DNA of 19,253 bases. Origin: Escherichia coli. Lineage in GTDB: Bacteria > Pseudomonadota > Gammaproteobacteria > Enterobacterales > Enterobacteriaceae. The stretch's first letter is position 1; each line of letters starts with the position of its first letter. Below are positions 3,984 through 6,041 of this stretch, in pieces. Below the pieces are notes generated by a model. The model was not told the origin of the DNA. It did no database searches and worked only from the letters and a program-made list of their open reading frames with translations. The position numbers were made by a program, and so were the translations under genes. The stretch lies in assembly GCF_003334335.1 (NCBI RefSeq), contig NZ_QOWQ01000055.1; one strand, written 5' to 3'.

Positions 3984-6041
3984 TCAGCCAGCCGTGGTCG
4001 TCATACTGCCACTGCTCCGCCGGTTCACCGTGCGCCGGGTGATACGGTCTGACGCATCGTAATGCCAGAGGGTGATAAGCCCCTCGTCTTCACTCTGCGT
4101 GAGTTTTCCGGTCAGGTCATAATGGTAACGTTGCGTCCGCCCGTCAAAGCCGCGCTGTTCAGTCAGCCTGTCCACCGGGTCATACCGGAACGTGGACTGG
4201 CTGCCGTTCTCGTTGGTCAGCACGGTGATGCGCCCGGCAGCGTCATACCCCATGCTGCGCGTCAGACCGCCCTGCGTGGTGCTGATGGCTTTACCCCACG
4301 CATCATACTGTGTCTCACTGCGGCTACCGTCCGGGGCAATGATAGCGGTGAGGTCGCCTGCGGTACTGTACTCATAACGGGTCTCCCGCCCCTGCGCATC
4401 CTTCTGACTGACCAGTTGCCCACGCGGGTTATAACTGCTGTAAGTGCTGATGCCTTCCTCCCGGTGAACGGCGATTTGTTGACCGTACCAGTCGTACTCA
4501 TACCGCGTCGTGTACCCCGAGCAGTCCGTAAAGGCCAGCAGTTGACCGTAACGGCTCCATGCCATCTGTTTTGTACTGCCCGTCGCATCCTCTATCCCTG
4601 TCGGCAGCTCACTCGCCGGGTCATCATAGCTGTAACTCGTCGTCTCACCGCTGCGTGAGGTCTCCGCCGCCAGCCTTCCCTTCTCATCATACTCCCGGCT
4701 GCTGCGAAGCCCGTCCGGGTACGTCACCGACGTCACCTGCCGCTGGCTGTTATAGCCATACCGTACCGTCCTGCCGTCCGGCCCCGTCACCGCCGTCACC
4801 GCACCCGACGCCATATGCAGGCTGTACTCCGTCCGCCGCCCCGCCGCATCCGTCTGCGCCTTCAGCCTCCCCGCCTCATCATACTCGCTGCGGGTGATGC
4901 TCCCGTCCGCATGCTCCTTTTTCACCACCCGCTTCAGGCCACCTTCGCCCTCCGTGTACAGCACCTCCCGCCGGTTCAGACTGTCCGTGATGATTACCCG
5001 GCGCTCTCCGTACTCAAAGCGGTAGTCCAGCCCCTCCGGGTTGACCTGCTCCGTCACCCGACCGGTATCATCATACCGGTAGCGGCTCTCCGGCCTCCCC
5101 GCATAATGGTGCGCCACCATCCGCCCGGCGTGCTCCGCATCATAAGTAAACCCGCGAACCTGCGTCCCGCTGCGGTCATACACCGCCCGCAGTTCTCCGC
5201 TGGCCGTGTACGTGTAGCGCGCCAGCGGCGCAGTCGGCTGTTCATCCGGGTATGCCGGGTCGTGTGTCAGCCATACCGCCTCCAGCCGGATACCGTTATC
5301 GGCACCGTATTCTGTACCGGCGGGCAGCGTGTCGGGGAAAGCTGAAGAAGAAGAGGAAACAGAACGGGGACCGGCCGGAGAAGATAAGGAAGACTCGCGC
5401 TGTTTACGGAAGGCTTCCGCCCGCTGCGCCTGTGTGCTCAGCGCCAGGTGAAAACGGCGACCCGCGCCGTCCGTCACCCTGGTGATTTCGCCAGCCAGTT
5501 CGCCTGCGGCCTCGCGGTGGAAAGCCAGCGTCCGCCCGAAGCCGTCCACCACGCCCGTCAGCACCCGGTATGCGGGCGGCTCCGGCGGCAGCACCTCGTC
5601 CACCTCCGGCACCCGCTCCGGCCAGCTGAGTATCCACCACGGCCCCTGAAGGCTGTTTGCTGCCAGGTACGCATGCGGACTCAGGCGAACATCTTCCGGC
5701 AGCACCTGCCAGAGCGCGCTTAACGGCTGCGAGCTGTGCTGCGTCGCCACCCCGCCCCGCGCCAGCCAGAACGACTCGCTGCGGCTGTAGCTTATCTCGC
5801 CGGGAAACAGCGGCTCAAAGTGAATGCTCCTGCCGCCGCTGTCGTTGAGTATCAGTCCTTCATCGCGTATCTGTAAGCGGATATCGAAGGGCGCTTTCCA
5901 GCCGGGACCGAACACCCCCACCGGCGCGGGCGTCCTGGTCCGGTAGCTGCTGTAAGCGCGGGAAAGAATAAACGGCAACGGGCCGGGCAGCGCAAGGTCC
6001 GTCTCGCCCGGCAGCACCTTCGCACCCAGCACCGGGTTCAC
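3984..6041 (-). pseudogene. rhs: Rhs protein, N-terminal/core fragment (5'-truncated, ends at a frameshift-induced stop)
   Basis: 685-codon ORF with Rhs YD repeats that begins at an internal GTG (PVNPVLGAKVLPGETDLALPGPLPF...). The ~45 N-terminal residues expected in intact Rhs (including the PAAR-containing start, from memory of RhsA) are absent and an in-frame stop lies just upstream. It ends ...[19 protein letters not shown] after the frame break. Confidence 0.8.

Follow-up and report, generated by a model that had tools for sequence, protein, structure and literature searches.

The Rhs core sequence on the minus strand of the window studied here (the whole stretch of Escherichia coli DNA that was analysed, 19,253 bases) switches reading frame part of the way along, and the question raised is whether this switch is a genuine mutation, an error of sequencing or assembly, or the boundary between two genes and, if it is a mutation, whether it is the one that inactivated the gene. 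An earlier note on this DNA had reported the switch and placed the stop codon of the upstream ORF at 3984–3986; its peptides and its stop coordinate were both correct, and translation of that ORF gives a tail of 12 out-of-frame codons followed by TGA.

The two ORFs, which had been described without mention of their location on the minus strand, were found to be halves of one Rhs core gene. The downstream half, which is called as an ORF at 1969..3951 when started from GTG, carries the RHS-associated core domain, a DPLGL motif (2431–2445) and the C-terminal toxin tip. In profile searches, the NCBIfam model RHS_core (NF041261) matched the upstream half over positions 49–721 and the downstream half over positions 723–1261, and, as these positions adjoin, the halves represent one gene with a single break point. 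The bit scores of the separate halves, 1344 and 1100, are both below the curated cut-off of 2000, and there was no full-length match in a single ORF. YD repeats (TIGR01643) were detected in six stretches, TIGR03696 matched with E = 7e-23, and DPLGL precedes the variable tip. Judged by these profile matches, the gene in the window is a member of RHS_core by descent and not an intact gene.

At the broken gene, gene callers output one protein of 685 aa and another of 660 aa, as would be the case if the two ORFs were naturally separate genes making up a split Rhs. However, a single continuous frame crosses the site in approximately 3,700 genomes, the halves adjoin in a single model, one ending at position 721 and the other starting at 723, and the break lies inside the YD-repeat shell with identical DNA on both sides. 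The earlier note had named naturally separate genes as one finding that would overturn its reading; the homologue alignments show one continuous frame and refute the split, which is left with practically no probability.

Alignment to intact rhs alleles defined the indel exactly. Intact alleles read GCGC-ACGGTGA-ACGGTGA-ACCGG, coding for T-V-N-G-E-P, and the window reads GCGC-ACGGTGA-ACCGG with the same flanks. The heptamer ACGGTGA is thus present at 2.3 copies in intact alleles, forming a perfect period-7 repeat of 16 nt (ACGGTGAACGGTGAAC), and one unit is gone in the window, where the alignment opens a 7-nt gap at the one ACGGTGAAC that is left, though the placement of the gap within the repeat is ambiguous. 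The break had been expected within 4012–4031, and the aligned gap at 4023–4031 falls inside that interval; the prediction of an indel not divisible by 3 also agrees with the 7 nt found. When a 651-nt query was compared with E. coli by megablast, the best complete-genome matches were 658 nt long and 98.9 % identical and, because 98.9 % is equal to 651/658, the gap accounts for the whole of the mismatch. Base-level alignments to four of these best-match genomes confirmed that the surroundings of the site are otherwise identical. The features of the locus are listed in Table 1.

Table 1. Position, strand and supporting evidence for features of the rhs locus and its surroundings in the window
Feature	Position	Strand	Evidence
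ISAs1-family transposase, cut by the window edge	1..1168	(-)	EC416 annotation transferred by alignment
Candidate cognate immunity gene, 130-aa ORF	1599..1991	(-)	Position; 23-nt overlap with rhs stop; WP_001101839.1 in relatives
Rhs core, downstream half, -1 frame	1969..4020	(-)	Open to 1969; RHS_core model 723-1261, TIGR03696
153-aa C-terminal toxin tip after DPLGL, YkuD-like (L,D-transpeptidase)	1972..2430	(-)	PF03734, E = 4.8e-5
Rhs core remnant, upstream half	3984..6041	(-)	685 codons from first GTG; RHS_core model 49-721
Frameshift site, single ACGGTGAAC	4023..4031	(-)	Intact alleles ACGGTGAACGGTGAAC; alignments
21,250-bp deletion junction, 17 unaligned bases	6046..6062		BLAST versus intact MB31 cluster
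tssM (icmF) 3' remnant, without approximately 2.9 kb of the 5' part	6063..6609	(+)	EC416 PGAP annotation
Surviving distal T6SS genes: VasL-domain protein, Hcp, 304-aa hypothetical, ykfM	6620..9925	(+)	ORFs, EC416 annotation

The earlier note had left the choice between mutation and assembly error open. If the frame break were an error, the source strain would have two heptamers, one of which was lost from the consensus. Rhs genes are multicopy, with a median of three matching places per genome, and may confuse assemblers, and the one-copy state is rare: a search of 5,426 complete RefSeq E. coli genomes with the 651-nt query did not find it in this allele. However, at least 13 contigs encode the exact 685-aa truncated product. 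They stem from independent projects and assemblers, with no fewer than four NCBI assemblies and six Logan assemblies of separate runs among them, and all of the loci with this exact product that were checked have one copy of the heptamer. The carriers are the assemblies GCA_949768945.1, GCA_002233355.1, GCA_958333835.1, GCA_014809655.1 and GCA_014809485.1 and the runs SRR8137183, SRR30938087, ERR15835232, ERR3970411, SRR29077608 and ERR1157009. The quality of the window itself also speaks against an error. Over its whole 19,253 bases it differs from the closest complete genome, that of E. coli EC416, in three things only, namely the 7-nt gap, a synonymous SNP at 8797 and an A7/A8 homopolymer at 11114, as expected of a clean assembly. 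The SNP, which lies in codon Ala97 (GCT versus GCC) of the gene for the 304-aa hypothetical protein, is absent from the six other loci that cover the site and is common only to the window and the Logan contig SRR30938087_407 (L014), so that one of the contigs carrying the one-copy allele also has the private SNP of the window. The homopolymer polymorphism, in the spacer between yafT and tRNA-Asp, is also seen in GDSC2BY4G, and the window is without any further private indel across 19.25 kb. The flanks of the break match the orthologous allele with 100 % identity, which rules out a chimera with a paralogue and, by our own reasoning, a 16-nt repeat that is shorter than the usual assembly k-mers and not a homopolymer is a poor candidate for such an error. 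This case is built on other assemblies that carry the same allele, among them L014 with its shared SNP. As far as other assemblies with the same allele allow, an artefact of a single assembly is excluded, and error in general appears very unlikely; hence, of the two possibilities that had been raised, the genuine mutation stands.

The earlier note had also called the mutation inactivating, and this is misleading as the rhs gene was already a pseudogene after a 21.25-kb deletion that took its first 152 nt. In strain MB31, which retains the whole cluster at this chromosomal location, rhs, vgrG and hcp are on one strand and tssB, tssC, tssE, tssF, tssG, tagH, tssJ, tssK, icmH/dotU, tssH, vasI, tssA and tssM are on the other, followed by the distal genes in the order VasL-domain gene, hcp, hypothetical gene, ykfM, yafT and tRNA-Asp. 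BLAST alignment of the window with MB31 gave two blocks, 75–6045 and 6063–15735, and the 21,250 bp missing between them consist of the first 152 nt of rhs, vgrG, hcp, tssB through tssA and approximately 2.9 kb of tssM. The 152 nt include the start codon and encode the N-terminal approximately 50 residues (the full-length MB31 allele begins MGGGKPAARQGDM) and, in the profile search, RHS_core model positions 1–48 were absent from the window. In Rhs effectors, the N-terminal approximately 50 residues serve loading onto the secretion spike. Compared to MB31, the rhs gene in the window therefore lacks its own start codon, its N-terminal region, its upstream sequence, an adjacent vgrG and the local T6SS core genes. 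The first 152 nt of rhs are missing in most relatives as well.

The large deletion is the earlier of the two lesions. The two-copy orthologue is annotated by PGAP as 'incomplete; missing N-terminus' in EC416, CFSAN061761, strain 1303 and others, and this orthologue lies back to back with a fragment annotated as 'IcmF C-terminal', whose own N-terminus is missing too. In this order of events, a 21.25-kb deletion next to tRNA-Asp had first removed the 5' end of rhs, the vgrG that went with it and almost all of the T6SS cluster. Since rhs was by then non-functional, we infer that the frameshift was a second and selectively neutral lesion. The frame break is, then, ordinary pseudogene decay in a T6SS-linked rhs remnant and not the cause of inactivation. 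Taking the evidence together, it is very probably a real slippage deletion of one heptamer, present in a small set of isolates, that added a second, neutral lesion to an rhs gene no longer able to function.

Further lesions were seen in related remnants. A nonsense change (CAG to TAG) is present in GCA_902499835.1 (L020) at the equivalent of window position 4008, approximately 15–20 nt downstream of the heptamer site. This copy has two heptamers and a different 5' truncation, with rhs joined near tssF/tssG, and gives the same 660-aa downstream ORF call. A different truncation point was also found in L002 (strain 1303). Small indels were present in the downstream ORF in L001 and L007. To the extent that comparison of these loci can indicate, independent further lesions in the remnant are consistent with relaxed selection. 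The window and EC416 have lost a further 754 bp of tssM that most relatives retain (window 6063–6065 versus L001 3532–4285, with a 3-nt overlap at the junction).

As to how the 7 nt were lost, the repeat context leads us to infer slippage. Slipped-strand mispairing during replication would delete one ACGGTGA unit from ACGGTGA-ACGGTGA-AC, the frame would move by one base and termination would follow 12 codons on. Among the perfect tandem repeats of the two-copy gene (4,089 nt), the period-7 repeat ranks second in length and first of those with a unit that is not a multiple of 3, making it the likeliest site in the gene for a frameshift by slippage. Perfect tandem repeats with units of at least 7 nt are rarer in codon-shuffled controls, with a mean of 0.23 compared to the two observed. 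The longest perfect tandem repeat in the rhs core, GCGGTGACGGCGGTGACGG, has a period of 9 and is 19 nt long (window 4793–4811, minus strand; position 1249 of the two-copy gene), and slippage there would stay in-frame.

The copy number of the heptamer was then compared across strains together with the length of the tssM remnant (loci are designated L001 and so on). One copy occurs with the long tssM remnant in L009, L011–L013 and L015–L019, and with the short remnant, from which the further 754 bp are gone, in the window, L010 and L014. Two copies occur with the long remnant in L001 and with the short remnant in EC416 and GDSC2BY4G. Because all four combinations exist, either recurrent loss of the heptamer or recombination is needed to explain them. 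Haplotypes across the gene include almost no SNPs, leaving the long versus short tssM as the sole informative background, and recurrence and recombination cannot be told apart with so few SNPs in the gene.

A 77-nt junction query extended the comparison. Its only one-copy match was in another paralogue, and three genomes had three copies; variants made up 4 among 1,281 full-length matches. The one-copy example is from SW071618 (L005), where the rhs paralogue concerned is a different one that is linked to vgrG and followed by a YdcD-family gene. Three copies were present in MB31, NCTC9087 and AST198, where the product ends ...TVNGER* and is flagged as frameshifted by PGAP; at least six contigs encode the three-copy product. 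The changes in these strains represent independent events at the heptamer site. Overall, the variant proteins are on 6 and 4 recorded contigs versus 995 for the exact two-copy remnant protein, and the one-copy and three-copy alleles each amount to roughly 0.5–1 % of the two-copy allele. Two of the variants are in rhs genes that are vgrG-linked and full-length, with three copies in MB31 (L006/L023) and one in SW071618 (L005). MB31 also has a complete T6SS cluster, and only vgrG was seen upstream in SW071618. Hence, rhs genes that would otherwise seem full-length are also knocked out at this site.

The occurrence of both contraction to one copy and expansion to three in nature, including at vgrG-linked loci and in MB31 with its complete T6SS, is what might be expected if the heptamer were a contingency (phase-variation) switch for the Rhs toxin, and a related possibility is that the break is crossed by programmed ribosomal frameshifting. 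However, the site has merely two units, far below known contingency loci, and the one-copy state, having no remaining repeat, cannot revert by slippage. The variants are at the low frequency given above, and the window has no secretion system left to control. A phase-variable locus would have a long tract with frequent, reversible changes of unit number, and here the two-unit state dominates. Ribosomal frameshifting would call for a slippery heptamer of the form X XXY YYZ between the repeat and the stop codon, and none was found on the minus strand over 3984–4060. A switch or a programmed frameshift is therefore highly improbable and, from the frequencies in the genomes compared, the rare variants point to a mutational hot spot rather than to a switch.

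A different proposal is that the ACGGTGA duplication is a selected, low-frequency off-switch and not a mere hot spot. If so, gain or loss of a unit would be favoured in vgrG-linked strains with a working T6SS (MB31, SW071618), silencing a toxin that is costly or self-harmful, and the allele in the window would be a relic of such silencing. We regard this as a long shot, and prefer a slippage deletion that followed the large deletion and was neutral.

In composition, the locus resembles E. coli rhs pseudogenes, sharing with them the YD repeats, the RHS-associated core domain, DPxGL, a variable tip, a small downstream ORF and ISAs1. In being disabled by truncation together with a frameshift, it is like the frameshifted and 5'-truncated rhs pseudogenes annotated by PGAP as 'frameshifted / missing N-terminus'. 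Nothing essential sets it apart from known rhs pseudogenes, and what is its own is the loss of one 7-nt copy and its place in a T6SS island by tRNA-Asp. The rhsE gene of K-12 has been called a pseudogene (PMC4786092), and that paper describes SNPs in rhsE and slippage at sites other than the rhs heptamer. We found nothing specific in the literature on a heptamer frameshift or slippage site in rhs. Slipped-strand mispairing underlies phase variation at contingency loci (Torres-Cruz and van der Woude 2003; Moxon et al. 2006, both as cited in PMC4786092). Like the loci subject to it, the heptamer site gains or loses whole units at a perfect repeat, with one- and three-copy derivatives of a two-copy site, but, unlike contingency loci, it has two units, a low frequency of variants and a contraction that is irreversible.

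Public genomes already contain annotated examples of such frameshifted rhs remnants, and public databases list the truncated protein itself. The biological weight of the frameshift is small: it records a further stage in the breakdown of a T6SS/Rhs island that the 21-kb deletion had already gutted. For annotation, the 685- and 660-aa ORFs should be merged into one pseudogene flagged as both 'frameshifted' and 'missing N-terminus', and should be counted neither as two Rhs proteins nor as a functional toxin. More generally, the heptamer duplication is a recognizable site of recurrent frameshifts in rhs cores, and its state could be used as a lineage marker or serve as a caution when rhs genes are scored as intact.

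The toxin tip gave a YkuD match that is weak but significant and covers part of the model, and includes a His (in WLHGGG) and a Cys (in TMGC) spaced as H-X18-TMGC. The Tlde1 T6SS effectors, which are peptidoglycan-targeting L,D-transpeptidases, have the catalytic motif HXX14-17-(S/T)HGCh (PMC9638812). The His-X18-TMGC arrangement of the tip resembles this motif, and the tip differs from these effectors in being fused to an Rhs shell, in having Met in place of the second His of the motif and in having no sequence match to a solved structure; in a search by sequence against the PDB no match was significant, the best (E ~0.8) being at the level of chance. PADLOC gave no match for either the tip or the small ORF that follows it. 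From its position, this ORF is probably the immunity gene; its only domain match is a weak one to DUF4367. The window and most of the relatives examined have an intact copy, whereas deletions of 2 bp and 1 bp disrupt it in CFSAN061761 (L001) and NCTC9087 (L007), respectively. This ORF may be the sole part of the locus that is still under selection.

Beyond the small ORF lies the ISAs1-family transposase gene; ISAs1 is the H-repeat element typical of Rhs loci. On the other side of the island, the window includes two tRNA-Asp genes (at approximately 11175–11251 and 19178–19253) that are approximately 99 % identical to each other. The tRNA-Asp gene beside the T6SS island is presumably aspV, from its position beside dnaQ on the K-12 map. 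The second is cut by the end of the window and, in relatives, is followed by 5S and 23S rRNA genes.
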